A stretch of DNA of 64,000 bases from an uncultured Pirellulaceae bacterium (GCA_964397295.1 CAYNJG010000004.1:8302-72301); one strand, 5' to 3'; positions 12,128 to 60,371 are shown, numbered from the stretch's first letter. The notes: generated from the letters alone by a model not told the origin. Numbers and translations: made by a program.

Positions 12128-12212
12128 AAAACACAGAGGCACGGAGATCACAGAGTTTGAGAAGGCCGAATGAGAGCCTTCTCTGTGTCCTCCGCGCCTC
12201 TGTGTTTCAAAA
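12128..12212. repeat. Palindromic REP/MITE-like element, full copy
   Basis: The arm AAAACACAGAGGCACGGAGATCACAGAG is inverted as CTCTGTGTCCTCCGCGCCTCTGTGTTTCAAAA around a ~25-nt loop. It lies directly 3' of the GxxExxY pseudogene stop. Related copies are at 12638-12670 and 48384-48461. Confidence 0.8.
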
Positions 12213-41143: not shown

Positions 41144-41216
41144 GGGGGATTAGCTCAGTTGGGAGAGCGTTTGGCTGGCAGCCAAAAGGTCGTCGGTTCG
41201 AACCCGTCATCCTCCA
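41144..41216 (+). tRNA. tRNA-Ala (anticodon GGC)
   Basis: Folded by hand. Acceptor GGGGGAT/ATCCTCC includes the G3:U70 alanine identity pair. D arm GCTC-AGTTGGGA-GAGC; anticodon arm TTTGG-CTGGCAG-CCAAA; T arm GTCGG-TTCGAAC-CCGTC with one U:U mismatch. CCA is not encoded. Confidence 0.9.
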
Positions 41217-41279
41217 CTTCTCGTAAGTCATTGTCAAAAGCCGCTTTGCGGTTCTCGGGTGTGACGCATTTTGATGAGC

Positions 41280-41303
41280 GCAAACCAGTACATACTGGTT
41301 TGC
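41280..41303. repeat. Perfect 11-bp inverted repeat with 2-nt spacer
   Basis: GCAAACCAGTA-CA-TACTGGTTTGC lies between the tRNA and the integrase remnant. Confidence 0.8.
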
Positions 41304-41313
41304 GGCTTTCAAC

Positions 41314-41607
41314 ATGAAAGTTCACACCATGCCACGTCTTGAAAAGTCTCTTCCGCGCCTGGGAATCCACAAGCCAAGCGGCCAGTTCTGCGTCGATCTA
41401 AGCGGCCGCTGCATCTACCTCGGTAAGACGAAGCGTATCGCCAAACAGAACTACGATATCGCCGTTGCCGAATGGCTGTCCAACGGTCGCCAACACCCCG
41501 TCGCCAAGTCCCAGCAAGTGACCGTCAATAAGGTGATCCTCGACTATGTGAAGTTCGCCAAGACGTACTACGTCAAGCGGGGCAAACTCACAAGCGAGTA
41601 CCTGTGA
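41314..41607 (+). pseudogene. Truncated tyrosine-recombinase (phage-type integrase) gene, N-terminal ~97 codons only
   Basis: MPRLEKSLPRLGIHKPSGQFCVDLSGRCIYLGKTKRIAKQNYDIAVAEWLSNGR.. resembles the N-terminal arm-binding region of planctomycetal site-specific integrases. No catalytic domain follows. It sits directly 3' of a tRNA. Confidence 0.6.
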
Positions 41608-41731
41608 CGCGGGTTGTCACATTGCCAGACAGAGTAAGAACAAGCTCTCTCGTTTCGACGCGAAAGGTTTCTGCACTATGTGGCACCTGCCACTCTGCAA
41701 AAGCGAAAGAGTTTTGGTCAGCACCGCTATT

Positions 41732-41756
41732 GGAGGGTCCCTCCACGGGGGCCCCC
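41732..41756 (-). terminator. GC-rich palindromes downstream of hsdR (candidate terminator)
   Basis: GGAGGGTCCCTCC and GGGGGCCCCC palindromes lie 40-65 nt 3' of the hsdR stop. There is no clear U-tract. Confidence 0.35.
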
Positions 41757-41796
41757 AAGGGATCTGAAAAGCGACACATTACCAACTGGACTGAAC

Positions 41797-44700
41797 TTAG
41801 ACCCAAGAATCACATAGTATGGCGGCTTGCTCCAAAACTAGCTTTACGGCTTCGTCTTGCAAGTCTGGCGGATACCCATGCTTCTTTAGAATCCGCCTTA
41901 CTATCACCCGGATCTTTGCACGTGCTGACTCTCGAAGCGTCCAGTCAATGGAGACATTGGCTCGGACCTTCATAACAAGCTCGGTAGCGATCACCTTTAG
42001 CTTGTCCTCGGTTAATGCTTCTACCGCTGTGTCGTGATTTGCCAGCGCGTCATAGAAGCAGACTTCATCATTGTTGAGGCCCAGCTGCTCACCACGAGCT
42101 TCAGAGGCTTGAATGTCTTTCGCCAATCTTATTAGCTCGTCGATGATCTCTTGTGTCGTTATGGCTCGGTTGTGGTAGGAGTTCAGCGTAGCCTGTAGCA
42201 TCTCGGCAAAGGATCGTCCTTGAACAATGTTCTTCTGCTTGCGGATCTTGATCTCATCGTTGAGCAATTTGCGAAGCAACTCTACCGCAACATTCTTGTA
42301 GGGCATGCTGCGTACTTCGTCGAGGAATTCATCCGATAAGATAGAAATGTCAGGGCGTTCAACTCCGGCGGCGGTGAATACATCGATCACCTCTTCGTCT
42401 GCCGAGATCACAGCTTTCGCGACCAGTTGCCGAACTGCGTAGTCCAGCTGGCTTGAAGACTTACCGTTGTCGGTGTACTTCCGAAACATGGTGCGGATGA
42501 TTTGGAAGAACGCCACATCTTCCTTGATCGATTCGGCATACTCTTCGGTCGGACATAGAGAAAACGCTTTGGATAAGTTGCCTACAATTGCGTTCCAACG
42601 TGCTTTGCCGTCTTGCTCGCCAAGGATGAAGTCTTGTCCCGCTTGAAGCAACGTGATTCGCTCGGCGGGAGTTCCGGTTGTCCATTTCGACCAATCGAAT
42701 CCATGCAGTATGTCGCGGCATTGCTCGTGGTGTTTACGCAGGGCTTCGAGAGCTGCCTCGGTATCAATGGTGGTCTGCCCCTGTCCGCCACTGTCCGTGT
42801 ACGTCTTCAGGGCTTTCTTTAGCGAATCGCCGATCCCAAGATAGTCGACGACCAATCCACCCGGCTTCTCTTTGAAGACACGATTCACACGAGCAATTGC
42901 TTGCATCAGACCATGGCCTTGCATCGGCTTGTCGATATACATCGTGTGCATCGACGGAGCATCAAAACCGGTCAACCACATATCGCGGACGATCACCAGT
43001 TTGAAGTCGCTGTCGGCTTTTTTGAAACGAGTCGCGAGTGCTTTGCGGCGATTCTTGCTGCGTGAATGCTGCTGCCATTCCGGTCCGTCATCCGCCGACC
43101 CTGTCATGATGATCTTTAACGCTCCCTTTTCGTCATCTTCATCGTGCCAATCGGGGCGAAGTCTAATCAGCTCGTTGTACAGGTCCACACAAATACGGCG
43201 GCTCATGCAGACGATCATGCCCTTACCTTCGATGCCTTCCGCCTCCATTGCATCGCATCGCTTTTCGAAGTGATCGACCAGATCCTTAGTCATCACTTCT
43301 AGTCGATTGTCATCGCCAACCATCGCTTCAAGCGCTGCCCACTTGGCTTTTACCTTGGTGCGTACCGTTTCTTCGGCACCCTCGGTGACTTCTTCAAACT
43401 CCTCGTCGATCGTCTCAATGCTGGAATCATCCAACGCCATCTTGATCACGCGACTCTCGTAGTAGATCGGAACGGTCGCTTTGTCATCGACAGCTCGCTG
43501 GATGTCGTAGACGCTGATGTAGCCTCCGAAGACGGCTCGGGTGTTCTTGTCGTCAAGCTCGACCGGTGTCCCAGTGAAACCAATGAACGACGCATTGGGT
43601 AAGCCATCGCGGATATTACGAGCGAATCCATACGCGATCGTCTCTTCGCCCGTTTCCTTGTTCTTCTTTTTGCGAGCCGTAAAGCCGTATTGGCTTCGGT
43701 GGGCCTCGTCTGCCATGACGACAACGTTTTTGCGATCAGTCAGGACGGGAAACTGCCCTTCCGCTTCCGCGAACTTGTGGACGGTCGTGAAGATGACACC
43801 ACCAGAATTGACTTGAAGCAGCTCACGCAAGTGGTCTACCGAATCAGCTTGAATCGGAGTCTGCCGTAGGATCTCACTGCAGCGTTGAAACTGGCCGAAC
43901 AGTTGATCGTCCAAGTCATTGCGGTCGGTCAGTACAACCAACGTTGGATTGTTCATCGCTGGTGAGGAAATCACGAGACCCGAATAGAAGAGCATCGTGA
44001 AGCTTTTGCCGCTGCCTTGCGTATGCCAGACAACACCGACCCTTCGGTCACCTTCTTCTTGTGTCGCTTCGATAGTGCGTTGAAGCGCTTGTCGAGCTGC
44101 GTGGAACTGATGGTAACCGGCAAGAATCTTGTAGACGCGATCGCTGTCTGTATCGTCCTCGAACAACACAAAGCTCTGTAGCATATCGAGGAAGCGTTGC
44201 TTGTCGAATACGCCCCGAATCAGCGTTTCCAATTCGAGAATACTGGCGACCGGTTCTTCGGTATCGATCGTCGGCCAAGTTTTGAACCACTCTGGCCCGG
44301 CTGTGAGCGATCCAATCCTTGCCTTTTGACCATCGCTCGTAACGAGTACCTCGTTGTAGGTTAGCAGCGTTGGCAATTCCTTCTTGTACGTTTGCAACTG
44401 CTTGAACGCTTTTTCGACCGTAGCCGTTTCATCGCCGATATTCTTTAGCTCAATCAGCGCCAACGGCAAGCCGTTTACAAACACGACGACATCAGCCCTT
44501 CGCTCGTTTCGTCCCTCTTTTACCGTGAACTGATTCAACGCAAGCCATTCATTGTTCTCTGGTTGGTCGTAGTCGATGAGTTTTGCGATCTGACCGCTGA
44601 TCGTGCCATCGTCACGTTTGACTTCGACAGGTACACCATCACGCAACAGCTTGTGAAAGTTACGATTGGCGGCAATCAATGACGGTGAGTCGATGCGCAA

Positions 44701-44919
44701 CACTTGCCGCATCGCTTCGTCGATATCGTCCGACCCGAGTTGCGGGTTCAAACGTCTAAGAGCGGTTTCCAAACGCTCAATCAAAACAACGTCGTTAAAC
44801 GAGTCTCGTTCTGCGTTGTCGCCGGAAGGTGCGATCTCGGGGCCATAGAGCGTCTCGTATCCTAGTTCCTCGAACCAAGACAACGCGGCTTCTTCGACGG
44901 TGGCTTCGTTAATCGTCAT
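41797..44919 (-). CDS. hsdR: Type I restriction enzyme R subunit
   Basis: The start is taken at [22 protein letters not shown] (44919). Walker [14 protein letters not shown] box [11 protein letters not shown], motif FTGTP and a long C-terminal helical domain typical of HsdR. Confidence 0.95.
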
Positions 44920-45845
44920 CAATCTAGCTCCGTTGTGTCTTCTTCGGACGCTGCCGATTGTCGATAGTCGAGCCCCGCATCTTGCCAATCTGCATAAGTC
45001 CTGCCGTCCGAAAGCTTCCATCGCAACCGACCGTTGCTATTTCGTCCGGCGACGACGGCCGCTGCAGCGCTTGGACTGCTAAAGGGTATGTCTTCGACGA
45101 AAACCAAATACTCAGGGTCATCGCTATCAACGAGCTTCTCATCGGCAACCAGTTGCTCGCGAAGTTTTCGATACGAGGTCCAGGAATCAACTCCTGCTTT
45201 CTGGCTGTACTTCCTTTCAGAACGACAAACTCATCGTCCATCAATACCGCGTTCGCATCTGCCCCAGCTACATGACATTCGAAAACTGGACTGGTCGATT
45301 CTGTTGACTTTTCGCTGGTCGAAATCATTGGTCGCGGATTCAGGAATTGGTGTCCAAGTACAGGCAAGATCATTTGAACCTGACTAAGAAAGAACTCCAT
45401 ATCAGCGACATCTGGCTCAGGGAGAGGTGGGGGAGAATGAGCTGTTCCATTTGCAATGGAGGCTCGGCTTCGCTGTGTTGCACAGATTGATCAGTCGGCT
45501 TTCCAAGTATCGAACGTGGGACTTCGTGAGATTGTCGTCCTTGCTGGTAATCAGAATAACACGCGTGAAGAAGTCTTTCGCTTCGTCGCTATCGTGCTTC
45601 TTGATGCGAGTGAAAACGTTGTCGCCCTCACCAATGTAAACGCGATCTTGTGAGGGCGATTCTGGATCAGAGCCGATTAACAGATAAATGCCAGTGCGTT
45701 TCGCTTCGTCGCGTTTGCCGAGTTCGGCAAGTCGTGACCTTGGCGCAACTACGACCTTGCCCGTCCAGTTGATGATTTCGGCCGTCAGGATGCCACTAGG
45801 CACGCCATCGGCGAGGTACAGTCGAATCGTCTTACCCGTCATCAT
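44919..45845 (-). pseudogene. GIY-YIG nuclease / DUF4357 accessory gene, disrupted by two frameshifts
   Basis: Three ORF-track pieces (45417-45881, 44924-45400, 44919-45107) join into one protein when the frame is shifted near 45468 and near 45190. GIYLLIG..VYIGEGDNV lies N-terminally and [28 protein letters not shown]-terminally. Confidence 0.8.
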
Positions 45846-46092
45846 GGCAATCTCCCGTTGTCTTGTCTGTGTCCCGTTCATGGCCCCTTTCTGTTAGCAC
45901 ATAACGGACTCCAACGCCGGTCGTCCCGTGCTTGTCGAAGATGCCTTTTTCCACAAGTTCTGACAGCTTCTCGAATTGGAACACCGTGAAGAACTGCGAC
46001 AGCAGCGGATCGCTGCTCACGTAATCTTTGACGCGATTACGGAACTCCTGAAGTTCCTTCTGAACGCTGCTGATGAAGATCTGCCGACTCAT
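45832..46092 (-). pseudogene. Collapsed remnant of a DUF4062-type ATP-binding/wHTH accessory gene
   Basis: MSRQIFISSVQKELQEFRNRVKDYVSSDPLLSQFFTVFQFE (DUF4062-like N-terminus) runs directly into ..LVEKGIFDKHGTTGVGVRYVL (C-terminal wHTH-like tail). The several-hundred-aa middle expected for such proteins is missing. Confidence 0.5.
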
Positions 46093-46314
46093 GGTGTTAA
46101 TCTGGTGAACCTTCGTTCTGTCCCGTGTCTCCAACTGCTGGCATGTGTCCAATGAAACACGAACTTCCCCCAAGATTCACGCTCGATCCGAATTACGTCG
46201 ATATTGCGGGCTGTGTTAATTTAAAAAACAGGGTTGGCAACCTATACGCTTGATTGTTAGGCTCCCGTGACCGATACTTGAAACAACTCATCTGCCATGT
46301 GTAGAAGGAGTACC

Positions 46315-46338
46315 GAAGCCGTCCCTTGGGGCGGCTTC
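46315..46338 (-). terminator. GC-rich hairpin immediately 3' of the 166-aa gene
   Basis: GAAGCCGTCCC-TT-GGGGCGGCTTC starts 7 nt after the stop at 46345. No U-tract. Confidence 0.45.
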
Positions 46339-46344
46339 AGCTGT

Positions 46345-46845
46345 TTACGGGGTGTATTCATCTCTTTCTTTTCGCAGTTTTCTCTTCCGAGACTCCTCGG
46401 GTGTGCAGTACGCGGTTATGAACTGCAGGTATTGAAATCCATCACGTTGTCTGGTCCGTTCGGCTAGCACCACAAGATATCTTTCGGCAAACCAAAACAG
46501 AACGTGTGTGTTCCGTCCTCTCTGGTTCTTCCACACGTTGATCTCACCAGCAACGCCTGCATTGTCGATAATTGCTCTTGGCCAAAGGATGCGTTCGCAC
46601 CGTCTCATTTCCGGCGTGCGTTCTTCTTCGTTTGGCCCTTCAGACATGCAATGCCAAAACCCTGCGAACTTCCCGTCGTACATTGGATCGCGACGACAAC
46701 GGATCCATTTACCTTCAAATTGTGGTTGGCTGTCAATCATGCTGTTTTTGAATGCATCGTAAATAGCAGCTAAATAAAGCGCCCAATCTCCGTCGAAGTC
46801 TTCGAGTGTGATTAACTCAGGCAACCATGTGTTGTCGTCACTCAT
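46345..46845 (-). CDS. Hypothetical 166-aa protein, partner of the DUF3800 gene
   Basis: The start is taken at MSDDNTWLPELI (46845), 8 nt after the DUF3800 stop. No motif recognised. Cys/His/Trp-rich patches (FWHCMSEG, RRCERILWPR). Confidence 0.6.
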   Translation of the reverse strand: MSDDNTWLPELITLEDFDGDWALYLAAIYDAFKNSMIDSQPQFEGKWIRCRRDPMYDGKFAGFWHCMSEGPNEEERTPEMRRCERILWPRAIIDNAGVAGEINVWKNQRGRNTHVLFWFAERYLVVLAERTRQRDGFQYLQFITAYCTPEESRKRKLRKERDEYTP

Positions 46846-46853
46846 GGGAAGCC

Positions 46854-47552
46854 TCAGCGCGATTGCCAGACGAGGAGGTTGAGTTTTGGCTCTCGAAGCC
46901 ACGTTGATCGTTGCAGCGAAAAGCCCGTCCGCTCTCGAACCCTTTCTATGAGCGCCAATTTTGCCGCGCTTGTTTGCAGTCCGCGATTGGAATACGTAAC
47001 AGCCCCAATTAGCAAGTCTGCCAACTGCATCAACTCCGATTCGTGAGATCGAATCTGCTGGACACGCCGGACAATGTTCCCATTGCCATCGTAGTTGGCA
47101 TCTCGAAGGACTTCCTCTAGTTTTTGGCGTTTCCCCTCGCTACGAGTGTCCTTGATGTCCAAATAGATCGAGTAGTGTTGCGTGGGGTCGATAATTGGCT
47201 CCAGCAGCGTGAAGCACATTTTGTAGTACCAATCGTCGTGCGTTTGGTGAAAGCGGTTGTGTTCCAACTGGGTCTTGTCGGGAACGACTATGCATCGAAA
47301 ATGCAAGTCGTCGTCATCAAGAAAGTAGTCAATGATCGCCCGGTAAAAGTCGAGTTTTGCTGGAGAAACTTTTGTCCATTTGAACTCGAATTGAGGTGAC
47401 AACCCATGAGACTTTTGTATGTCGCGAACTCGAATCGAGATCTCGCGAGCCTTCTCTTCGGGGCACCAAATAGCGCCCAGAGTCATGGGTTTGATTCTGT
47501 CGTGCTCCAAGTGACAACTTTCGTCGAGGTAGACATTAAACGACTCAGCCAT
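46854..47552 (-). CDS. DUF3800 domain protein
   Basis: 232 aa with an N-terminal FNVYLDESCH (DES motif) and a C-terminal ELMQLADLLIGAVTY (QxxD motif). These are the two signatures I associate with DUF3800. Confidence 0.7.
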   Translation of the reverse strand: MAESFNVYLDESCHLEHDRIKPMTLGAIWCPEEKAREISIRVRDIQKSHGLSPQFEFKWTKVSPAKLDFYRAIIDYFLDDDDLHFRCIVVPDKTQLEHNRFHQTHDDWYYKMCFTLLEPIIDPTQHYSIYLDIKDTRSEGKRQKLEEVLRDANYDGNGNIVRRVQQIRSHESELMQLADLLIGAVTYSNRGLQTSAAKLALIERVRERTGFSLQRSTWLREPKLNLLVWQSR

Positions 47553-47731
47553 TTGCGAGGGCCTCCGAGGTGACGGTGAGCAAATAAAATGCGAACGGTG
47601 AATGGTGAAGAGTGAAACTTTTCAACCTCATACGTTTACCCTTCTCTCTTCAACCTTCACCTTTTTTGTCTCGCCGGTTAGAAACTTAGCAATGAGCGTG
47701 TTGCGAATCAGCGGTAAGGAGACCATTTTCA

Positions 47732-48253
47732 TTACCCCCACACGATATAGGCTGGATTCACGGATCGCCCGCACTGCGTGCAGGTGGGTTCGCTGGCGGT
47801 GACGGTGCCTTTCTCGCAGTGGGGGCACAAGTCGTTGTCGAGTAGCCACATGACTTGATCTCCCATGCTGACGCCACATTCGGGGCAGGTTGGGTTGCGG
47901 TCTTTTGCATCCCAACGCCCCCAGCAGTCAGGGCAATGGTCGTGGGGGACGATGCTGAGCTGGCCGTGGACGACGTAGCGGTGCGGGGATGAGTCGCCCC
48001 AACATTGGCGCGCAGGCGATCCGCTATTGGTTGCGAGACCGGTTTGTAGCAGCGGTAGGCTCTTTTCTCGCTCCTCGTCGAAAACCTGAAGGCTGATGTC
48101 GAGCGTCAACGAATACGGCTCTCCAAGAATCCGACTGATTTCGGCCAGCTTGGCTTTGAGTTGATCGAGTGTTTCACCTTCGATCAACTCACTCACCTGC
48201 TCGGAAATGTCGTCGATGAGGGGATCGATTTGTTCAAACTCATTCTTTTCCAT
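47732..48253 (-). CDS. Double zinc-ribbon protein with acidic helical N-terminus
   Basis: 173 aa with CPDC-12aa-CPEC and CPHC-11aa-CTQC. The start lies 3 nt after the stop of the hsdS relic frame. Confidence 0.6.
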   Translation of the reverse strand: MEKNEFEQIDPLIDDISEQVSELIEGETLDQLKAKLAEISRILGEPYSLTLDISLQVFDEEREKSLPLLQTGLATNSGSPARQCWGDSSPHRYVVHGQLSIVPHDHCPDCWGRWDAKDRNPTCPECGVSMGDQVMWLLDNDLCPHCEKGTVTASEPTCTQCGRSVNPAYIVWG

Positions 48254-48256
48254 GTT

Positions 48257-48379
48257 TCATCCTTCAACCTTGCACACTGGCGAGGGCCTGAGCGCGGCGG
48301 GGACAGGCAACTCGTCGGAAAGAAGCGTGGGTAGCAGCGTGTTGCGAAGGGTGCCCAGCGTCGAGGACGCTTGCGCGGA
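48257..48379 (-). pseudogene. Relic of an hsdS 3' end (distal conserved helix)
   Basis: It translates to [29 protein letters not shown]. The C-terminus of the intact HsdS is [30 protein letters not shown]. Same orientation, separated by the REP element. Confidence 0.75.
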
Positions 48380-48383
48380 CCTA

Positions 48384-48461
48384 TTGAAACACAGAGGCAC
48401 AGAGGACACGGAGTCTCGCATGCGACATTCCTCTGTGATCTCAGTGCCTCTGTGTTTCCAA
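48384..48461. repeat. Palindromic REP/MITE-like element, full copy
   Basis: The arm TTGAAACACAGAGGCACAGAGGACACGGAG is inverted as CTCTGTGATCTCAGTGCCTCTGTGTTTCCAA around a loop containing TCGCATGCGA. It lies 22 nt 3' of the hsdS stop. Confidence 0.8.
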
Positions 48462-48482
48462 ACGTTTTGTCGGCTCATGCCA

Positions 48483-49871
48483 CTACTTCCTGTGTGCGGT
48501 GAGGGCGGCAGGGACGGGCAACTCGCCGGAGAGAAGCTTGGGAAGCAGCGTGTCGCGAAGGGTGCTCAGTGTTGAGGACTCCCACTCGTTGGCGTCCATG
48601 CGTTTGAAGATGCCATCAACCAGTTCTCCAAACGCATCAAATACCTCGTCGCTCGGTTTCACAAACGTTATTTCGTTCATGCTTCGTTGACTTAGCTTGG
48701 GAATTGTTGACCCAGTGAGGTAGCCGCTGATGTCAGTTGCTCGAAGCGTGAACATCAAGAATCGAGTCACGCCATCGTGGTCGCCCGAAAGAACATGGGC
48801 GTGGTTGTTTACCCAGAACCTTCCTGTCGCGCGAAACGCGATCGGTGTGTTTCTCGTTCGTAGGTTCTCGCCATCTTCGGCGACGAGCAAATACTCTCCG
48901 TCGTAGATGAATTCGTTAACGTGATCGACGACGCCCGACGCTCCGTAATACGGATATGGTCCAGCCACACGATCCTTTCCTTTGACCGGCTGCCGCAACT
49001 TGTCGTGGTTGTTCGCAAAGTCCCCGAGCCGAACAACTTCCCAGCCCGTTGGAATCTTGCCGAGGTCGGAGTCTTGGAAGGTGGAGGGGAAAAGAGCCGA
49101 GAGGGAAGGTGGAAGGGTGAAGGGCGAATACGCGGGCGAGGAATCGGGGGAAAGGTCGCGAGGGGGCGGCGAGGTCGCCGTGGCGGCTCCGGTTCCCGAT
49201 GGCGGATTGGCCTGCTGGCCACTCTTGCTGCGCACGGGGTCGAAATCGACGAACCAACTCTTGAAGATCGCCCGCGCAAGGGACTCCAGCGTCGCATTCA
49301 TCCGACGGTTCAACTCGATCTTGTCGTCCAACGCACCAAGGATCGACGCGATCGCTCGCTGTTCTCCGATGGGAGGCAGCTTGAACTTGAATGCTTCGAT
49401 GCGTTTTGGAGCGGTGTGCAGGATTTTCGTCCCAGTCGCACCAACGTACAGCTCGCGATTAAATTCCGACCAAAGGAAAAGCCAGTAAAGAAAGTCGGGA
49501 TCAACGGCATCGGCTTCCTTGACGACCACTTTACCGAGACGTTGGTTGTGCAAATAAGTTCGACCGTCGTCGGGTATGCGGCCCGGAATTCCAAGAATTT
49601 CTCCGCCTGCTGTCTGGCACGTCATTACTAGCAGAATGTCTCGCGGTTTCAGGTCGTATTCGGCGGGATAGTCTTCGCGATATTCTTTAACCGTCGTTGA
49701 TTCAAAACGAAACCCGCCGGTGTATTGAAAGTTGCCGATGTTCACGACGATCGGCTTGCCCGAAAGGTCTTCAGAAAAGAACTTGCTCTTGAACGGCCAG
49801 CCATGGGTAATGCTGACGACATCGCCGAGCATGACTTCTCGCCATTTTCCGTTTGGCGACTCATCCGCCAT
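48483..49871 (-). CDS. hsdS: Type I R-M specificity subunit
   Basis: The start is taken at [13 protein letters not shown] (49871), overlapping the hsdM end by 11 nt. Two target-recognition domains are separated by the central helix ([50 protein letters not shown]). The distal helix is at the C-terminus. Confidence 0.9.
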
Positions 49872-51588
49872 AGCCCAACGCCTCCAGATTGGACTTGATG
49901 GCTTCCTCCAAACGCGACGACTCCTCGAACTGACCGCCAAGCTCGCCGACCAAGCGACGCATCTTGTCCTCAAACGGCTCGCCGTCGTCCTCGACTTCTT
50001 CCGCTCCCACGTAACGGCCCGGCGTGAGCACGTGGCCGTGTTCGGCGATCTCGGACTGCGTCGCACTTTTGCAGAAACCGGGGATGTCGGAGTAAGTGTC
50101 GAGTGACGAGTTGCGAGTGTCGAGCAGAGGGTTCTCTTGCCACGCGTGGTAGGTGTCGGCGATGCGGGCGATGTCGGCGCCGGTTAGCTCGCGGTGGACT
50201 CGGTCGATCAGCGTGCCCATTTTGCGGGCGTCGATGAACAGAGTCTCGCCTTTCCTGTTTCGGAATCCCTTGGCGGCTTTGTCTCGTGTCAGGAACCACA
50301 GGCAGACCGGAATCTGCGTGCTGTAAAACAACTGACCGGGCATCGCGACCATGCAATCGACCAGATCGGCTTCGATGATCTGGCGGCGGATGTCGCCTTC
50401 GCCCGACTGGTTACTGCTCATGCTGCCGTTGGCCAGCACGAATCCGGCCGTGCCCGTCGGACTGAGATGGTGGATGAAGTGCTGCACCCATGCAAAGTTG
50501 GCGTTGCCTTTGGGAGGCGTGCCGTATTTCCAACGCACGTCTTCTTCGTTGCGGTGCCAGTCGCTGTCGTTGAACGGCGGATTGGCGATGACGTAGTCGG
50601 CTTTGAGGTCTTTGTGCAGGTCGCGGCGGAAGGTGTCGGCGTGCTCTTTGCCAAGGTCGCCGTCGATGCCGCGAATCGCAAGGTTCATCATCGCCAGACG
50701 TCGAGTGGTGGGGTTGGATTCCTGACCGTAGATGGCGATGTCGCCTTTGATTTTTGGAGCGGCGGTTTTTCCTTTGCCCTTCTTGCCGTTTCCATTGCCG
50801 GAGGCGTGGGCTTTGATGAACTTGTCGGCCTGGACGAACATACCTCCGCTGCCGCACGCCGGGTCGTAGATGCGGCCCTTGTACGGGGCCAGCATTTCCA
50901 CCAGCGTGCGGACGACACAACTGGGCGTGTAGAACTGGCCGCCTTTCTTGCCTTCGGCGGATGCGAATTCAGAGAGGAAGTATTCGTAAACTCTACCGAG
51001 GATGTCTTTGGAGCGATGGGCAGTTTGTGCGTCGGACGGCGTTGTCGAGTCGCCGTCAGCGTCTGGCTTAGCGATCATCTCGATGGTGCCGATCAAGTCG
51101 ATCAGCTCGCCGAGTCGCTGCTTGTCGAGTGCCGGCCGAGCGTAGTTTTTGGTGAGCGTGCCTTTGAGCTTCGGATTGTCCCGCTCGATGGCATCCATTG
51201 CGTCATCGATCAGCTTGCCGATTGTCGGCTGTTTTGCGTTGTTCTGTAGTTCCAGCCAGCGAGCTTCCTTCGGAACCCAGAATACGTTTTCGGCTCGGTA
51301 CTCGTCGGCGTCCTCCGGATCAGCTCCTTCATACTCGCCTTCGCCAGCGACGAGCTTCGCGTGGTGCTCATCAAACGCATCGCTGATGTACTTGAGGAAG
51401 ATCAGCCCAAGCACAGTGTGCTTATACTCGGCGGCGTCCATGTTGTTGCGAAGTTTATCCGCAGCTAACCAGAGCTTGGCTTCAAAACCAAGATTTGCAG
51501 TAGTGTCCTTCTGTTTCTTGGTGCTGGGCTTCTTAGTTGCTGCCTTCTTCTTGGTTGCTTTTTTCTTAGCTGCCTTTTTCTTGGCCAT
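49861..51588 (-). CDS. hsdM: Type I R-M N6-adenine DNA methyltransferase subunit
   Basis: 575 aa with an HsdM N-terminal domain ([25 protein letters not shown]), motif [11 protein letters not shown] and motif [11 protein letters not shown]. An unusual Lys/Ala-rich N-terminal tail is present. Confidence 0.95.
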
Positions 51589-52048
51589 CCGGTAACCTAG
51601 CCGTCAATAAATTCGCAAAAGTATGAGGTCTGAATCTAGCAGAAACTAAAGCTATTTGCTCGCAACCTTCGACACCCCACTACAGAATTGCGACTGAAGT
51701 TGGAGTGGTTATTTTAGATTTCAAGTTGTCAGGTTGCCAAGCTCTTCTTAACGGAACAACTCTTACATTGGTGGCAATCTGCTATCAAAACCATCACTGC
51801 CGAAGAATGAGTCTGAGGTGGTCTAGCAACGTTTGAACGCAGAGCTCAGAGAAATCTTGGTTCTGGACAATGGGTGCCACATACATAGCTCGCTCTAGCC
51901 AGGACAACTCTCTTCACTTTCCAAAAGACTTCGTTGCTCCAGATTCGAGGCGTTGGTCTAGCGAGTGCTTGGATGGCGGCTTTCTGATCGCAATTGAGCG
52001 ACCGGAGCTTTTCGGTGGCGCAGGATTGCAAATGAATTAGCCAGCAGG

Positions 52049-52354
52049 TCAGCGAATGAAGATGGCAATAACCCCAACTAGCAAGAAGAATGCCGACGTC
52101 CGTACAAACCTACCGAGCAAGCAAGCCGCGCCGGCATACCAAGAAATACCGGTCACGTACCACACTACGGGAACCCAGAAATATGAAAGGAAGCTTTGCT
52201 GCCCGCGGCCTTCCCAGACGAATTCCATGAATAGTAGAACCGTGGCGTAACACATCACGATGATCGCCACGATCAACCAAAGCATACCCACAGCAACAAG
52301 GCCGGAATGAACCCCTAAGTCAGTCGCCAAGTTGTCGTACTTGTTTGGCATCAA
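52049..52354 (-). CDS. Small polytopic membrane protein, hypothetical
   Basis: 101 aa with three hydrophobic helices. Confidence 0.4.
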   Translation of the reverse strand: MMPNKYDNLATDLGVHSGLVAVGMLWLIVAIIVMCYATVLLFMEFVWEGRGQQSFLSYFWVPVVWYVTGISWYAGAACLLGRFVRTSAFFLLVGVIAIFIR

Positions 52355-52450
52355 TGCATCCTAGAATAGATTGCAGCCGCCTAACGTCATCGATAACCGG
52401 GCCGGTGCGGTTGATCTTCCATTTTGAAAAACGCGTATTCGATCCGTTTG

Positions 52451-52969
52451 TTAGGCAGCCGATGGGCCGAGTACGGTTCTAACCAATGCGGCCTTAGGCG
52501 AATGTCTACGATCTGAACGACCAATGCAAACGAAACCGAGTAAGATTAGAAACCTCCAACAGCGTACGGTCGGCTCAGGCACCATACGGACGGGGAACGA
52601 GCAAGTAGTATGATCGGCACAAAATCCAACGATATCGCCGTTTGTTGCACGTGGTGAAACAAAGATATCGAGTGTCAAAGGACCATCAATAGTCACAACA
52701 TCAGCGACGTTCACAACTGTTACGGACGACATTGGATCTGCGACATTGGGAATGATGAATTCAAACGGTGCTGGCGATGAACCTGGCATTAACTCGCCAC
52801 CAGCAGAAACAAACTCGAAGCCACGAGTGGTGTATGTACCTTCAATAGGCGAAACAGTGATGGGTCCGCCGCCGACTGGCCATGTGCCGATTATATTTTC
52901 CTGCGCGGACAGACGCGAAGCACAAACACACGGCAAAATGATCAGGAACAGACGAAATGCGTTTCGCAT
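52451..52969 (-). CDS. Secreted hypothetical protein with PEP-CTERM-like anchor
   Basis: 172 aa with a signal peptide. VPEP followed by a hydrophobic helix and a basic cluster (MVPEPTVRCWRFLILLGFVCIGRSDRR), though ~20 extra residues follow. Confidence 0.45.
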   Translation of the reverse strand: MRNAFRLFLIILPCVCASRLSAQENIIGTWPVGGGPITVSPIEGTYTTRGFEFVSAGGELMPGSSPAPFEFIIPNVADPMSSVTVVNVADVVTIDGPLTLDIFVSPRATNGDIVGFCADHTTCSFPVRMVPEPTVRCWRFLILLGFVCIGRSDRRHSPKAALVRTVLGPSAA

Positions 52970-53296
52970 GCTATCTCCTTCGTGATTTCGAATTAGGCCA
53001 CCTAACGTTACCGGTAGCCGGGTACGAAGAGTTGATTATGTGTAAACAGAACCATCGGCATCCGACTGTTTTGAGCACTCCGCGTTTGTTCAATCGTTTG
53101 CTATCCGGCAGTTTTCGCAGTGACAATTAGGGCCATCTTCAAATGGTCTCGCTGGTGGTTTTCATTCATCGATCGTTGGCCGGATAACATTTAAAATCTC
53201 GCGACAAGTGATTCCCCATTTGCTTACGCCCGGCTTCGCGACTCCTGTGCATTTTTTGTGTTATGCCCGGTTGCGCTTCAGGGTTTAATCCACACT

Positions 53297-53860
53297 TCAT
53301 TTCGTCACGAACGGTCCGTAGTACTTGAGCCCGAGTTCCGCGACGTCGTCCGGGTAATCCATGAATTCATACGATAGCGTACCAACGTCAGCCAGCACGC
53401 TCTCCGGCAAAGTTGAGCCAGCTTCTTTGACCGTATTCCCATCGCGATCAATCATGGGGTTTGGCATCAATGCCTGAAGTTGGTCGTGACTGAGTTTATC
53501 TATTTCTAATGCCGAAGTCAGTTTTGAATAACAGTCGGCGACGATCTTTGCCATCTTGTCTGCACCCATCTTTTGTAGTGCGGCCAGGCCATACCGATGA
53601 GAGCCGACGCCCCAGTTGGTGATGAACTGCAGGTATCCACCGTTGTTGACGTCCGCCTCCAATCGCCAAACGGCAGCCAACTCGCGTTGCCATTCTTCCG
53701 GCAGTGACTCAAGGTCACCGTCGTGGGCGAAGGTCATCTCGTGGTACTTGTCCGTGAGATCGTACCAATCCAATTGCGGCCTCCATTTGTGGCATAACGT
53801 GACGCTTCCGAAGAGTGGACCGTCCACACCGCACGACTTTTTGGAGCACTCCGCGTTCAA
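53297..53860 (-). CDS. DUF4375 (DMP19-like) domain protein
   Basis: EADVNNGGYLQFITNWG resembles the NGG(F/Y)xQF motif of the DMP19/DUF4375 family. The start is uncertain (TTG at 53860 or ATG at 53737). Confidence 0.5.
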   Translation of the reverse strand: MNAECSKKSCGVDGPLFGSVTLCHKWRPQLDWYDLTDKYHEMTFAHDGDLESLPEEWQRELAAVWRLEADVNNGGYLQFITNWGVGSHRYGLAALQKMGADKMAKIVADCYSKLTSALEIDKLSHDQLQALMPNPMIDRDGNTVKEAGSTLPESVLADVGTLSYEFMDYPDDVAELGLKYYGPFVTK

Positions 53861-54054
53861 TCGATTGCCCGCGTGCCAATCAGTTTAAGCGTCGCCGCGT
53901 ACGCGAGCAAATGAGTCAAGCAAAGCAGCGATTTTTTGCTTGCCGATGGGGTTTGCGTTTTGTCTTCCTGCGCCGCCAACGAATCTGTCTTATTGCGACA
54001 CGTGTTCCGTGTCACCGACTGCATGTTTGAGTATATTTAAATGGGAAATCCATC

Positions 54055-55980
54055 ATGAAACACGAAACCACTGCTCTGCTACTCACGTTTTTATTGCTGG
54101 GCCAAGCCTTAGCGCAAAACACGGTGGAACCGGGCGACCTCAGTGTGCGACTCAGGACTGCGGCCGCGTGGAATCCGGTTCTCGATCTCGGCAGCGAAGC
54201 GCTCGAACTTACGCCCACGGACGTTGTTCCGTTGGACGATGGAACCGGACGATTGCTGATCGCGACGCTCGGCGGAACCATCCGCGTTTTTGATCAACAA
54301 GCTGGTCTGCTCGACGAACCGCTTTTCAATAGTCAGCAAAGTGGCCTGCAACTTCAGCAAGAATCGGGAACAACGGGTATCGTCGTGCACCCGAACTTTG
54401 CCGGCAATCCGGCCGAGTTTGGCTACGGAAAGCTCTACACGATCACGACGGAGAACGGCGCGTCAACCAGCGGGCTTTCGCCGGAGCACGTGGACTTTCC
54501 ATTCGCCGGAGAAGTCCATCAAGACGTTATTCGCGAGTGGGACCTCGGGACGATTGTTGGCAACGCGGATCAAAACTCGCTGCCAAGTATTTCTGTCAGC
54601 GATTCGCGCGAGATCCTGCGCGTCGCGCAGCCGGGGCCTTTCCATAACCTTACGGACATGGCCTTCGACCTATCACTCGAGCCAACCCATTCGGATTACG
54701 GTCAGCTTTATATCAGTAGCGGTGATGGCGGCAACAGTTTCACCAACGCATCGACGAACGCGACACGCAAGCAGGCTGCGCAAGATCTTTCTTCGATTTA
54801 CGGTAACGTTCTGCGCATCAACCCGAATCCCGATGCCCACTCGCTGGTTCGCAACAACGAAAACACCAATTTGCCGGCCTACAGCATATCCCCGATCAAT
54901 CCGTTTGCCGGTGACGAAGTGGTCGAATCGCGCGACGCCGGTACGCTCGCTGAGATCTTTGCCTACGGCCTGCGCAGTCCGTTTCGACTGAACATTGATT
55001 CGCAGCAGGGTACCATCACGTTCGGAGACGTGGGCGAACAAAATCGCGAAGAGATTTCGCTGGTCACGCCGGGCAGTAACTCAGGTTGGGGTAGGTTCGA
55101 AGGGACACGCCAAGATAATGACTTCGTGGAACTCGCTGGTCCAGCCCCACATTCGCCGCCCGTCTTTGAATACGGTCGTGACGTGGGACGATCCGTCATT
55201 GGCGGTATCGTCTACCGAGGATCCGCGTTTCCAGAATTGTTCGGCAAATACGTGTTCGGTGACTTCGGACAATCTGGAGTTTCGGCGAGACTGTTTTACG
55301 GCTCGATCGATCCGACGGATGATAGTTTCGGCCAGATTTTCGAGTTCGATCTAAGTCGCAGTGAAGCACTCTTTCCCGTGAGCACGGACGAAGACGACAC
55401 GATCGACGGCGAGGCCGCTTTGCCGGATCGGCTGTTTAGCATCGGCGAAGACGAAAACGGTGAGCTGCTATTGATTGGCGGACAAGATCCTCGTTCAGCA
55501 GTCAGCAGCGTCGAGGGCGCGTTTCTGATTCGACTCACTCGTGGTCTTGGTTGCGATACAAGCGGCGACGGACTCTGCACGATCGACGACTTGAATGAGT
55601 TGGTCCTGGCGAGAAATCGTGATAGTGACGATCCGCTCTTCGACATCGACTGGGATGACGCACTTGATGGCGATGATGTGTCGTCGTGGCTCGAACAGGC
55701 AAGCGCCGAAAACGGTTTTCTCCACCGCGTGGGAGACACGAATCTCGACGGCGATGTGGACTTCGCGGACTTTCTTAGTTTGTCTGCGAACTTCGGAAAT
55801 CGCGAGGCAAACTGGACGCAGGGCAACTTCGACGGGAATGAAGGAACTCAATTTGCCGATTTCTTAGCGTTGTCCGAAAACTTCGGAGCCGTCGCTACAC
55901 TGCAAAACGTTCCTGAACCAAGTTTTCACCTCTTCTTACTGTTGGTATTCTTGGCGGCAAGACAGAAACGCCGGTATTGA
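54055..55980 (+). CDS. PQQ-dependent sugar dehydrogenase-like beta-propeller with dockerin-like repeats and PEP-CTERM anchor
   Basis: 641 aa with a signal peptide and sorbosone/glucose dehydrogenase-like segments (LYISSGDGGN, YGLRSPFR, NSGWGRFEG, GGIVYRG). The C-terminus has DTNLDGDVDFADFLSLSANFG and ends VPEPSFHLFLLLVFLAARQKRRY. Confidence 0.75.
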   Translation: MKHETTALLLTFLLLGQALAQNTVEPGDLSVRLRTAAAWNPVLDLGSEALELTPTDVVPLDDGTGRLLIATLGGTIRVFDQQAGLLDEPLFNSQQSGLQLQQESGTTGIVVHPNFAGNPAEFGYGKLYTITTENGASTSGLSPEHVDFPFAGEVHQDVIREWDLGTIVGNADQNSLPSISVSDSREILRVAQPGPFHNLTDMAFDLSLEPTHSDYGQLYISSGDGGNSFTNASTNATRKQAAQDLSSIYGNVLRINPNPDAHSLVRNNENTNLPAYSISPINPFAGDEVVESRDAGTLAEIFAYGLRSPFRLNIDSQQGTITFGDVGEQNREEISLVTPGSNSGWGRFEGTRQDNDFVELAGPAPHSPPVFEYGRDVGRSVIGGIVYRGSAFPELFGKYVFGDFGQSGVSARLFYGSIDPTDDSFGQIFEFDLSRSEALFPVSTDEDDTIDGEAALPDRLFSIGEDENGELLLIGGQDPRSAVSSVEGAFLIRLTRGLGCDTSGDGLCTIDDLNELVLARNRDSDDPLFDIDWDDALDGDDVSSWLEQASAENGFLHRVGDTNLDGDVDFADFLSLSANFGNREANWTQGNFDGNEGTQFADFLALSENFGAVATLQNVPEPSFHLFLLLVFLAARQKRRY

Positions 55981-55999: not shown

Positions 56000-56512
56000 A
56001 TGAAACGAATATTTGCCTTCGTGACGAGAGTGTCCTGCGGCATATTGTTAGTGACGATGGTTGTGTCTCTGGCGACTGCCAAACCGCAAGAAACTGTTGC
56101 TCCCAAAGATAATCGGGTGACTGCCGATCCAGACGTGACCGAGATCACTGAGCTCATGAGCAAGCAAGTCAGAGCTTGGAACGCGGCGGACATTCCTGAA
56201 TTCATGAAGTACTACTGGAAGTCTGACAAACTCACGTTTAGCTCGGGCGGTACCACACGTCGCGGTTGGAAAGCGACGCTTGAGTCCTACCAGAAAAAAT
56301 ATCCGACGCCGGAGAAGATGGGGCAGCTTCGTTTTTCCAATCTGGAGATCGACGTGTTGGGCGAGGGCGTGGCGTTGGTGCTAGGAGAGTGGCAGCTAAA
56401 GCGCGCAGACGATCCAGATATCGGTGGTAACTTTAGTTTGGTCTTTCGTAAGCTTGAAGGTCACTGGCTGATCATCCACGACCATTCTTCGGCACGAGAC
56501 AATCTTCCGTAA
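56000..56512 (+). CDS. SnoaL-like / DUF4440 (NTF2 fold) protein, secreted
   Basis: 170 aa with a signal peptide. QVRAWNAADIPEFMKYY..GEWQLKR..GNFSLVFRKLEGHWLIIHDHSS fits the NTF2-like pattern. Confidence 0.55.
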   Translation: MKRIFAFVTRVSCGILLVTMVVSLATAKPQETVAPKDNRVTADPDVTEITELMSKQVRAWNAADIPEFMKYYWKSDKLTFSSGGTTRRGWKATLESYQKKYPTPEKMGQLRFSNLEIDVLGEGVALVLGEWQLKRADDPDIGGNFSLVFRKLEGHWLIIHDHSSARDNLP

Positions 56513-56553: not shown

Positions 56554-56859
56554 TTAAGTAATGGTCAGATCGACAATGCCAGATTCCAGTTTGTTTTCAT
56601 CAACGGCAACGTGTTGGAAAAGATCTTGGTAATCAGCAGCTACGAGAATCCATCGTGTCGGTTGGTCGTCATAGTTTCTGAGAATTACATCGTCTTCGAT
56701 GAGTCGCGAGAGACGAAACGCGACGGCATCATCGCCAAGCAATGTGTTGCCATACCGATCAATGAATGTCGATTTCGAGGGTGGCACTACCGCGGAGCGG
56801 TCGAGTGAAAACGGCAACGCATTTGTTTGTGCTGTCACGGTCCGCTTCACGTAAGTCAA
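56554..56859 (-). CDS. Hypothetical 101-aa protein, downstream partner of the 505-aa gene
   Basis: The ORF starts 23 nt after the stop of the upstream gene on the same strand. No motif recognised. Confidence 0.45.
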   Translation of the reverse strand: MTYVKRTVTAQTNALPFSLDRSAVVPPSKSTFIDRYGNTLLGDDAVAFRLSRLIEDDVILRNYDDQPTRWILVAADYQDLFQHVAVDENKLESGIVDLTIT

Positions 56860-56882
56860 GATAACGAGTTTTTGCGTCGGGA

Positions 56883-58400
56883 CTACTTGGCTCCAGTTGC
56901 CTCGGTTTCCGGAGGTGATGAGACAAGAGCGGGCACGTTCGGAAAACTAACTATCTCACCCTCTGTCTTGAAAATTGCGATCCGACATTTTTCGGCGTAG
57001 CCTGGATCAGCGTTGGAAATCAAATATCGAACAGGATCAAATAGATCGGGAGTGAAGACCAATGCAATTCTTAGGCGTTTTGCCGCAATACAGCATTTTT
57101 CGGTAAATACGTCGGTTCGATCCGCAGGAGGTTTTAGTCGAAAACCATTTCCAAAAAGAACGCCCTTAGCGAAATCAGCAACCTCGTCTCTCGCAAAGTC
57201 TTCCTGTAGATTTCTTTCGAGTTGGGTGATTTTTGCAATGTTTACTGCGCGCTTATCTTTCCCCTCCGCTTCACCTAGAAATCTTCCTTCTGCACTAGTG
57301 AATACCGCATCAAATTCGGATTCGCCATCGTCAAAACCCTCAGCCGAAAATCCAAGCTGTCGTAGGGAGAATAGGATGATTTCTTCAAGTGGTTTCCCTT
57401 TTTCAAAAAGCAGGCGCCGTAGTTCGCCAATTTGAGAAAGTTCTTTCACCAGTTCTATTTTTTCGTTGTTTAGTTCCTCTATGCGTTCGGTTTTTTCTTC
57501 TATTCTAACTTCGAGTTCATTTTCTTTGGGGACGCGTAAGCTTGGAGATGCGGTCCATTCTGGCGGTGGCGTAATCTGTGAGTCTGCCTTTAACGCATCC
57601 GATACTGACAGCAAAGAGGCGGACAGTCGATGGCCGAATTGAATAGCAGTTTTCGTCCAATGTTTGTCATCTAATTCAATAAATTCTCTATCGTCGTATG
57701 TGAAAGGAGGCAGGAAAATCATAGCTCCCGACTTACCTCGTATTGCTGCGGCTACAGTCAAATCACCGCATTGCGTTTTGATGAATTCATCGGTGAATTC
57801 ACCACTAATTGTTGCTAGATATGGTGATACGTCACCAAATTGATCCCAGTACGTCGCGAGGAATGTGAGATCGGTTGCTGGACGGACGCGTTCACCACTT
57901 CGTGCATGAACCGAGAGCTCAATTGGAATCGCAGAATACGATGAAGCAGGTTCTACGAAATTTGTCGTCTTACGATTTCGACCGGTACCAGAGTGTTCTT
58001 TCTGACCTGTTTGAACAAATACTGTTTCCGGAGTCTGAAGGTAAACAAAAATTGTCTTCCCTGCCTCAAAAGCTGTCTTGAGTTCGGTCCGCCAGTGACT
58101 CAATTGTTCGCGTAGGCGAAAGGATCCAGATTCTCCTAACGATAGTTTTCCTCGATAGTAAGACACATGGTCCGGTTCAATGTTGAAGCCAGGGGAGTAC
58201 ACGATGATGTCAGCGTCAAGTAAGGACTGATTTGACCAGAAACTGACATACTCCGCAGCATTACCAGGGAGTTGGAGTCCAACGGAAAAGATTGTCCTAG
58301 CAGACATTTCGGCACTCAGGGAGTAGCGTTGCTCATTCAGGGTAGGACAGTTGAAAGCATGTGTAGGTTCGGTGCGACCAAAACGACTAACTAAGTTCAC
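56883..58400 (-). CDS. Hypothetical protein: N-terminal alpha/beta region, central coiled coil, C-terminal PD-(D/E)xK-like nuclease motif
   Basis: 505 aa (alternative start at 58307). Coiled coil: ENELEVRIEEKTERIEELNNEKIELVKELSQIGELRRLLFEKG. This is followed by LRQLGFSAEGFDDGESEFDAVFTSAEGRFLGEAEGKDK (D ... E-x-K spacing). The DNA is markedly AT-rich relative to its surroundings. Confidence 0.6.
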   Translation of the reverse strand: MNLVSRFGRTEPTHAFNCPTLNEQRYSLSAEMSARTIFSVGLQLPGNAAEYVSFWSNQSLLDADIIVYSPGFNIEPDHVSYYRGKLSLGESGSFRLREQLSHWRTELKTAFEAGKTIFVYLQTPETVFVQTGQKEHSGTGRNRKTTNFVEPASSYSAIPIELSVHARSGERVRPATDLTFLATYWDQFGDVSPYLATISGEFTDEFIKTQCGDLTVAAAIRGKSGAMIFLPPFTYDDREFIELDDKHWTKTAIQFGHRLSASLLSVSDALKADSQITPPPEWTASPSLRVPKENELEVRIEEKTERIEELNNEKIELVKELSQIGELRRLLFEKGKPLEEIILFSLRQLGFSAEGFDDGESEFDAVFTSAEGRFLGEAEGKDKRAVNIAKITQLERNLQEDFARDEVADFAKGVLFGNGFRLKPPADRTDVFTEKCCIAAKRLRIALVFTPDLFDPVRYLISNADPGYAEKCRIAIFKTEGEIVSFPNVPALVSSPPETEATGAK

Positions 58401-58728: not shown

Positions 58729-59274
58729 CTACCCAATAGCTCGGACTAGTTCGTCGTAGGTCGAAACGATTTCCTTGGTCGTCTCCGATTCCTGCGACTC
58801 AAGGTGCGCGCTTGCTTCGGTGATCGCCGTGGTGAGAATTGATTTTTCGAAGTCGTCGGCTTCTTCGATCAGTTTGCAGATTTGGTTGAATCCGTTTTGA
58901 CCGTACTCGGCATCTTTCGCGTACGCCTTTGACTGATTCAGGCAGAACGCAAGCCACGCAGTGAAGCGAGCGATGCTGGACCACGAGGCTTCGTCTGACT
59001 GTGGAGGCTGTTCGGATGTGGTTGCCACTTCGTCAACGACCGCCTTCAGCCATCGTCCTTCGTTTCGGCAAGGTTCACCTTTCGCCAGCGTCGGATCGTC
59101 GAGCAACTGTTCGGCGACTTGGATGACGTCGGCCGACATGTTCGGCATCTCGGCCCAAACCGACGAGATGGCTTTCTTGCCGCCTCGCGCGTCGATTTGT
59201 TCTTCCGTTGCGTCAATCAATAAATTCGTCGCCGTGACGAATGCGCGTAAGATAGTGTGCATGGTTCCGTCCAA
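58729..59274 (-). CDS. Hypothetical acidic helical protein
   Basis: 181-aa ORF with no recognisable motif. A 328-nt non-coding gap separates it from the 505-aa gene. Confidence 0.4.
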   Translation of the reverse strand: MDGTMHTILRAFVTATNLLIDATEEQIDARGGKKAISSVWAEMPNMSADVIQVAEQLLDDPTLAKGEPCRNEGRWLKAVVDEVATTSEQPPQSDEASWSSIARFTAWLAFCLNQSKAYAKDAEYGQNGFNQICKLIEEADDFEKSILTTAITEASAHLESQESETTKEIVSTYDELVRAIG

Positions 59275-59295
59275 AGCAAGTGTCGCAATGCTGGC

Positions 59296-60225: not shown

Positions 60226-60371
60226 GTGAGCCTGCAGGATTGGAGTTGGCTGAATCGTCCGGGCAATGTCAACACGCCCGTGCACAAAAGTACCAGTCCG
60301 CACGCACGCACTCAAGCGAGTCTTTCGAAAATCGATGCGTGGCCAGCATGCCGACGATTTCGACACCAGAG

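Follow-up and report, generated by a model that had tools for sequence, protein, structure and literature searches.

Within a 64,000-nt stretch of DNA from an uncultured Pirellulaceae bacterium (GCA_964397295.1, CAYNJG010000004.1:8302-72301; hereafter the window, i.e. contig C4:8302-72301 of a 7.86-Mb, 455-contig assembly), a tRNA-Ala(GGC) gene is followed by an open reading frame (ORF) of 97 codons, a type I restriction-modification (R-M) operon with further genes nested in it, a cluster of small minus-strand genes, a dehydrogenase gene and several orphan ORFs (Table 1). The tRNA gene is the sole one found in the window by ARAGORN, and the Ala-GGC gene is single-copy among the 65 tRNAs of the assembly. 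A preliminary description, made from the sequence alone, had read the region as an integrative element that lost its mobility, with the tRNA gene at 41144-41216 and the island ending at ~51800; the tRNA gene was recovered, with its end one base further, at 41217, while the island end had to be moved far to the right. Three same-genus genomes were available for comparison (G001, G002 and G003), all of them distant, with orthologues 40-80% identical.

The 97-codon ORF (41314-41607) has its probable start at ATG 41329, since its relatives begin with 'MP', and would so encode 92 aa. While it had no match in Pfam and NCBIfam, a phmmer search of a library of 1.84 billion representatives yielded 1751 matches at E≤1e-3, 95 of them reaching E≤1e-10 and every one aligning to a protein N-terminus, and PF00589 (Phage_integrase) was identified in the C-terminal half of six of the seven full-length matches scanned (379-435 aa); the catalytic R, H-x-x-R and Y motifs were visible in the alignment of the full-length relatives as well. 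With 20 full-length relatives as tblastn queries, the window match was restricted to 41326-41601, ending at 41598-41601, and no further recombinase fragment, core-binding or catalytic domain was detected anywhere in the window. Based on the N-terminal homology and on the confinement of the similarity to 41326-41601, the ORF is identified as the N-terminal ~92 residues of a tyrosine recombinase of ~400 aa, cleanly cut. The preliminary description had thus rightly named the ORF an integrase N-terminus lacking a catalytic domain, and its estimate of ~190 nt to the 3′-end of hsdR agrees with the measured 189 nt from the ORF's stop to the hsdR stop at 41797. Two other readings of the ORF were tried and rejected: joined with the next plus-strand ORF (41604-41975) as a frameshifted integrase, it showed no integrase similarity past 41601 in any frame; and a recurrent functional short form of ~92 aa was unsupported, as the breakpoints in 18 decayed relatives were scattered from 63 to 323 aa or were frameshifts.

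By scanning one genome per prokaryotic species, 155 relatives of the integrase were collected, and the 80 loci listed from them all belong to Planctomycetota or to unclassified metagenome-assembled genomes, including Pirellulales, Phycisphaerae and Tepidisphaerales. Of the first 60 loci, 49 have a same-strand tRNA gene whose end lies ~110-250 nt upstream of the integrase start, matching the 111 nt of the window, and the tRNA types used are many, with one Ala-GGC among them. An ORF of at least 330 aa (median 400) was present in 55 of the 73 related loci with a stop codon in view, and 18 of the 73 were decayed through frameshifts or truncations of varied length, so N-terminal stumps beside tRNAs are common in this integrase family. 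Deletions inside an island presumably cannot enter the tRNA gene, so that the tRNA-proximal end would tend to survive. The own genome holds a second member of the family (C202:4125-4379, 37% identical to the stump), which is open for only 210 codons and hence also decayed.

The window also keeps a palindrome that accompanies the family. Arms of at least 7 bp were found in 72 of 81 sequences (the window and the 80 related loci), and a core AAACGGTA-(0-3 nt)-TACCGTTT lies 16-30 nt upstream of the integrase in most loci throughout Planctomycetota, whichever tRNA is targeted; relative to the family consensus, AAAACGGTAC followed by ATACCGTTTT, the window copy CGCAAACCAGTA-CA-TACTGGTTTGCG differs with compensating changes. 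A second palindrome, TACCTGCCGATGGTCGGCAG, was observed ~70-85 nt upstream of the integrase in a subset of the loci. Both palindromes are likely operator or recombinase-binding sites. What an intact element of the family looks like was exemplified by the complete genome of Adhaeretor mobilis HG15A2, in which a tRNA-Ala(TGC) gene adjoins a 430-aa integrase gene and a perfect 45-nt direct repeat, which starts in the anticodon loop and extends 3 nt beyond the tRNA, recurs 25.1 kb downstream, with no tRNA at the position of the distal copy. The cargo there comprises an insertion sequence (IS) transposase and carbohydrate-use genes, indicating that the elements of this family are genomic islands and not obvious prophages.

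The extent of the block in the window was determined by comparison with the same-genus genomes, in which the site differs from one genome to the next. The left flank (window 23-40 kb) is syntenic with G001. In G002, the tRNA-Ala(GGC) gene is followed, after 42 bp, by the 3′-end of the orthologue of 59296-60366 (72%) and then by that of 61702-63495 (70%), representing an empty site; in G001, one unrelated 260-aa gene stands beside the tRNA-Ala(GGC) gene, followed by orthologues of the same two genes. In G003 the contig breaks at the tRNA, and another contig starts near the orthologue of 59296-60366, where a partial tRNA copy ~100 nt from this gene represents a displaced 3′ half (attR). This partial copy has 18 nt (ATGGCATTGTAGAGGTCA) in common with the full tRNA and then continues into a different, native-looking T-arm, and such a pair of attL and attR halves, in which the T-arm is switched, is taken as the signature of an element that integrated through a crossover in the region of the anticodon. 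Given the empty site of G002, the single unrelated gene of G001 and the attL and attR halves of G003, the tRNA-Ala(GGC) site is judged to be still active in the genus as a hotspot of integration. The orthologues of 59296-60366 are 73-77% identical in G001-G003, the gene was found in 29 of the 41 genomes searched, and its product looks like a putative secreted sugar-phosphate isomerase or epimerase. Outside the genus, the tRNA-Ala(GGC) gene and this gene are not neighbours, and the cargo genes were not found there.

The predicted insert is therefore delimited, by comparison with the same-genus genomes, from 41218 to ~59295 (~18.1 kb), with the right border within 59275-59295. This replaces the end at ~51800 and enlarges the island from 10.6 to 18 kb, taking in the small genes up to ~53.9 kb, which had been suspected to belong to it. 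The AT-rich non-coding stretch that had been taken for the border (51600-51850) does exist, as 51589-51850; however, it reads as the promoter region of hsdM rather than as an island end, for it holds the region's best sigma-70-like match (51740-51711, minus strand), facing hsdM.

The R-M genes are arranged on the minus strand in the order hsdM-hsdS ... hsdR with extra genes between hsdS and hsdR, and the domain sets of hsdR, hsdM and hsdS are complete in this one locus (Pfam, 1e-26 to 1e-124), confirming these three genes of the preliminary description. The relatives of hsdR are 60-80% identical, and the named ones are mostly from Planctomycetota; the nearest other hsdR (80%) belongs to a simple hsdM-hsdS-hsdR operon in which no genes are nested. 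Among the nested genes, M04A (4e-95, with Pfam DUF3800) and M04B (5e-57) were recognized by PADLOC as adjacent genes, and the PDC-S14-type gene is split, matching profile PDLC04923 at positions 17-144 with 45417-45881 (4e-61) and at positions 167-241 with 44924-45400 (1e-16). By these profile matches, PDC-M04 and PDC-S14 are candidate defence genes. The split PDC-S14 gene, of GIY-YIG type, and the DUF4062 stump account for the two pseudogenes noticed earlier.

In the region 47670-48478, the zinc-ribbon gene is bracketed by two relics of the hsdS 3′-end, located by repeat comparison at 48289-48368 (86% to 48500-48579) and 47670-47707, where a single relic had been described, and is accompanied by a REP-like (repetitive extragenic palindrome-like) element that folds with z = -5.75. 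The relics and the palindrome mark earlier rearrangements. Further copies of the palindrome were observed at window ~12129-12210 and on own-genome contigs C257 and C58. The HsdS protein carries a ~50-residue Pro/Ser-rich linker after the central conserved helix, and a 135-nt stretch of hsdS (49231-49365) shares 98% identity with its counterpart in an R-M locus (L163) that is elsewhere ~84% identical, which hints at a possible recent recombination between hsdS genes.

To the right of hsdM lies a cluster whose short repeats are found again, by BLAST, on numerous small contigs of this genome, linking it to array contigs. Aligned, the repeats take the form of an attC-type site, xxTAAC-AAACGAT ... 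ATCGTGAC-GTTAxxC, predicted to fold into a long hairpin, with R-box pairing, covariation of the L-box and compensatory changes in seven pairs; two of the repeat families, 'B' and 'C', had been tried as promoter or 5′-untranslated-region elements, a view dropped when the alignment displayed attC sites instead. A covariance model (R1) built from 14 copies of this genome's own attC arrays identified 90 sites genome-wide, in arrays spaced ~600-700 nt. In the window, each of the three R1 attC sites stands behind a small minus-strand ORF, and no intI was found, tblastn detecting no tyrosine-recombinase C-terminus. An integron integrase (IntI) is encoded at C64:29974-30912 (TIGR02249, 366 bits versus a cut-off of 265) with an attC site 1.1 kb away. 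The genome has a large chromosomal integron, its attC-like sites numbering at least 90, and many breaks in the assembly are probably due to the attC arrays. Two adjacent IntI-type genes are present on C64 (C64:29056-30912), one of them above the TIGR02249 cut-off; attC arrays were seen on ~25 small contigs, including C316, C375, C167, C304, C373, C449, C450 and C419; and contig C202, which carries the second integrase-family member, has an attC site at its end.

The right part of the block has other affinities. Orthologues of the GSDH-type dehydrogenase (60%) in G001 and G002 stand between two conserved genes in a different context (G001 C2:6.45 Mb), and in the own genome (C332:2885-6615) those two neighbours are adjacent, 80-82% conserved, and precisely without the GSDH gene. 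As the gene is missing from an intact, genus-conserved locus, it has been moved or replaced. The 505-aa gene further right had no homologue in 40 relatives and no family match in Pfam, NCBIfam or PADLOC; by eye, the C-terminus of its product is PD-(D/E)xK-like, putatively nuclease-like. The 101-aa and 181-aa ORFs are orphans.

Table 1. Features of the tRNA-Ala(GGC)-linked block and its borders; positions are those of the window.
Feature	Position	Strand	Evidence and remarks
tRNA-Ala(GGC)	41144-41217	+	Integration target, attL side; ARAGORN and alignment with G001-G003 tRNAs
12-bp-arm palindrome CGCAAACCAGTA-CA-TACTGGTTTGCG	41279-41304		26 nt before integrase start
Tyrosine-integrase remnant	41314-41607	+	N-terminal ~92 residues (arm-type domain); phmmer, alignment, tblastn
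Integrase-hsdR junction	41608-41796		Non-coding; no integrase similarity in any frame
hsdR (type I restriction subunit, 1040 aa)	41797-44919	-	Pfam HSDR_N, SWI2_SNF2, T1R_D3-like, T1RH-like_C
PDC-S14-type gene (GIY-YIG/DUF4357-like), frameshifted	44924-45881	-	PADLOC PDLC04923; at least 2 pieces
DUF4062 stump, collapsed accessory gene	45832-46173	-	PF13271, first 29 positions only, E 2e-4, below gathering score
PDC-M04 candidate pair	46345-47552	-	M04A (DUF3800) 46854-47552; M04B 46345-46902
Zinc-ribbon gene	47732-48253	-	Pfam DZR (double zinc ribbon)
REP-like 73-nt palindrome (CACAGAGGCACAGAGG...)	48386-48458		Between hsdS stop and relic hsdS 3′-end
hsdS	48483-49871	-	Pfam Methylase_S x2; overlaps hsdM
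hsdM	49861-51588	-	Pfam HsdM_N, N6_Mtase
hsdM upstream region	51589-51850		Non-coding, 44% G+C versus genome 52.5%
Integron-type cassette cluster (CALIN, see text)	52049-53880	-	attC covariance model; three or four cassettes
Cassette ORF, 101 aa	52049-52354	-	
attC site, canonical GCCTAAC...GTTAGGC	52376-52463	-	Model R1, E 1.5, weak
Cassette ORF, 172 aa	52451-52969	-	
attC site	52997-53113	-	Model R1, E 4.6e-9
attC site, doubtful	~53168-53268		Repeat family 'C' copy
Cassette ORF, DMP19-like	53297-53773	-	
attC site	53784-53880	-	Model R1, E 7.9e-9
GSDH-type dehydrogenase with PEP-CTERM tail	54055-55980	+	Pfam, NCBIfam
SgcJ/DUF4440 protein	56000-56512	+	Pfam, NCBIfam
505-aa orphan protein	56883-58400	-	No family match; region 56554-58400 also holds 101-aa ORF
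181-aa orphan ORF, last gene of insert	58729-59274	-	Absent from G001 and G002 regions
First conserved chromosomal gene past island	59296-60366	-	tRNA-Ala neighbour in relatives

We consider, with a probability of about 0.78, that the block is a decayed integrative island at tRNA-Ala(GGC) together with material accreted at this hotspot, and that it is immobile: the genuine left end of an integrative element is preserved in the 390 nt nearest the tRNA, and the rest is a mosaic unable to move on its own. An element of the Planctomycetota-specific family of tRNA-targeting tyrosine-recombinase islands would have integrated at tRNA-Ala(GGC), probably by a crossover in the anticodon-loop region of the tRNA, leaving the order tRNA, ~60 nt, conserved palindrome, ~25 nt and integrase gene. 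An anticodon-loop crossover class of tRNA-gene-targeting elements was reportedly recognized by Williams in 2002. A deletion or replacement then removed the integrase beyond residue ~92, and the end of a type I R-M operon is now found 189 nt from it; the distal tRNA-derived repeat (attR) was lost, so that the block can no longer excise. The R-M operon would have taken up PDC-M04, the zinc-ribbon gene, the now-broken PDC-S14 gene and the DUF4062 stump between hsdS and hsdR, and the operon is adjoined by three or four cassettes, the attC sites of which are of the integron family native to this genome, followed by the dehydrogenase missing from its ancestral locus, a nuclease-like orphan that appears to be horizontally spread and two further orphans. 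The content is a mosaic, and its mixed origins make a stepwise accretion at the hotspot a likelier manner of accumulation than a single arrival. The integrative element without mobility put forward in the preliminary description is thus supported.

Several observations weigh against this explanation. No attR was found in the window, where a 22-mer of the tRNA 3′-end had no copy at up to three mismatches and a blastn-short query of the complete tRNA with 43 nt added gave no match longer than 11 nt, in line with the earlier failure to see a repeat by eye; the distal end consequently rests solely on genomes whose orthologues are ~70% identical in protein. A check for deviating composition had been proposed, and no deviation was detected: the G+C of the block is 52.4% versus 52.5% for the genome, and its tetranucleotide distance to the genome is not deviant (z -0.7 to +0.8), a uniformity that fits same-phylum donors, the named hsdR relatives being mostly Planctomycetota at 60-80% identity. 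Every other assembly holding the locus is 100% identical to the window, and the attC copies of the window are partly degenerate, with several broken pairs and a fold no better than shuffles. Furthermore, no homologue of the stump's integrase was found in the three same-genus genomes, so the element in G003 would be either of another kind or not assembled.

Other explanations divide the same evidence differently. All 18 kb could be the original cargo of one integrative element that later lost only the integrase C-terminus and attR, as suggested by the single contiguous insert relative to G002 and by the 25 kb of mixed cargo in intact relatives; yet the attC sites are of the integron family resident in the host genome itself, the GSDH gene has its 60% orthologues at a conserved genus locus that is precisely empty in this genome, a different gene occupies the same site in G001, and the composition is uniform, so that we regard such a single arrival as unlikely. 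Likewise unlikely is a functional turn of the decayed-island reading, in which the stump might have been retained for a function instead of surviving by chance, the palindrome and the 92-aa arm-type domain might serve as a DNA-binding module blocking, for example, re-use of the tRNA-Ala site by incoming elements or regulating neighbours and, separately, the island might be a landing pad on which the resident integron integrase places cassettes away from its own array; if true, the landing pad would link tRNA islands and integrons in Planctomycetota.

The block might instead go back to the ancestor of the genus and have been deleted from G001 and G002, with the 97-aa ORF an unrelated leftover, and the missing compositional signal, the missing attR and the mere three genus relatives, all distant, would agree with that. 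It is nevertheless very improbable, because the stump keeps the exact tRNA-proximal geometry of its family and the palindrome, G003 displays a site used by integrating elements, and the isomerase-like gene is unlinked to the tRNA in genomes outside the genus, where the cargo genes were not found either. We give still less credence to an island of 41218-51850 alone, with 51.85-59.3 kb as native chromosome: the AT-rich non-coding stretch 51589-51850 and the genus-level orthologues of the GSDH gene speak for it, whereas that stretch carries the promoter-like site of hsdM, the tRNA of G002 lies 42 bp from the orthologue of 59296-60366, the genes of 51.85-59.3 kb are absent from the site in G001 and G002, and the 505-aa gene is absent from 40 relatives. 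A decayed and accreted island is thus retained as the explanation of the block, with a gene order beside the tRNA that is not conserved in G001-G003 and an ORF that is the N-terminus of a tRNA-adjacent Planctomycetota integrase family.

The block resembles tRNA-targeting islands of the P4/lambda type in lying 3′ of a tRNA gene that the integrase gene adjoins and in carrying accessory and defence cargo absent from relatives, and intact members of its family have the tRNA-derived direct repeats of such islands (45 nt in A. mobilis). It differs from them in that the integrase is cut to ~92 residues with neither attR nor compositional signal, and in that the integrase N-terminal domain falls outside the Pfam and NCBIfam models, in a family seen only in Planctomycetota. 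As in type I R-M defence islands, defence-candidate genes are inserted between hsdS and hsdR; unlike in those, two of the embedded genes are broken and hsdS 3′ relics bracket the zinc-ribbon gene. The cassette cluster is comparable to attC-site clusters without an integron integrase (CALIN; Cury et al. 2016, PMC4889954), with two or more attC sites that share a strand within 4 kb, each after a small ORF of the same orientation, no intI in the window, and IntI and large cassette arrays elsewhere in the genome. Its sites depart from that pattern in their partial degeneracy and in an R′ box that is mostly GTTATCC or GTTAGGC, and the cluster lies inside a tRNA-linked island, beside an R-M operon.

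Taken as a whole, the block is a genomic island of ordinary kind that has been immobilised, of greater size and more mosaic make-up than it at first seemed, and the understanding of how such elements work is unchanged by it. The main use of the finding lies in annotation, as 18 kb of this genome are marked as flexible, horizontally shaped DNA, and the island explains why candidate defence genes and orphans are found in company with a type I R-M system. The genome's large integron has stray cassettes inside the island. For the phylum, the stump defines a large Planctomycetota-specific clade of tRNA-targeting integrases, the N-terminal domain and palindrome of which lie outside Pfam and NCBIfam and about a quarter of whose copies seen are decayed like the one in the window.

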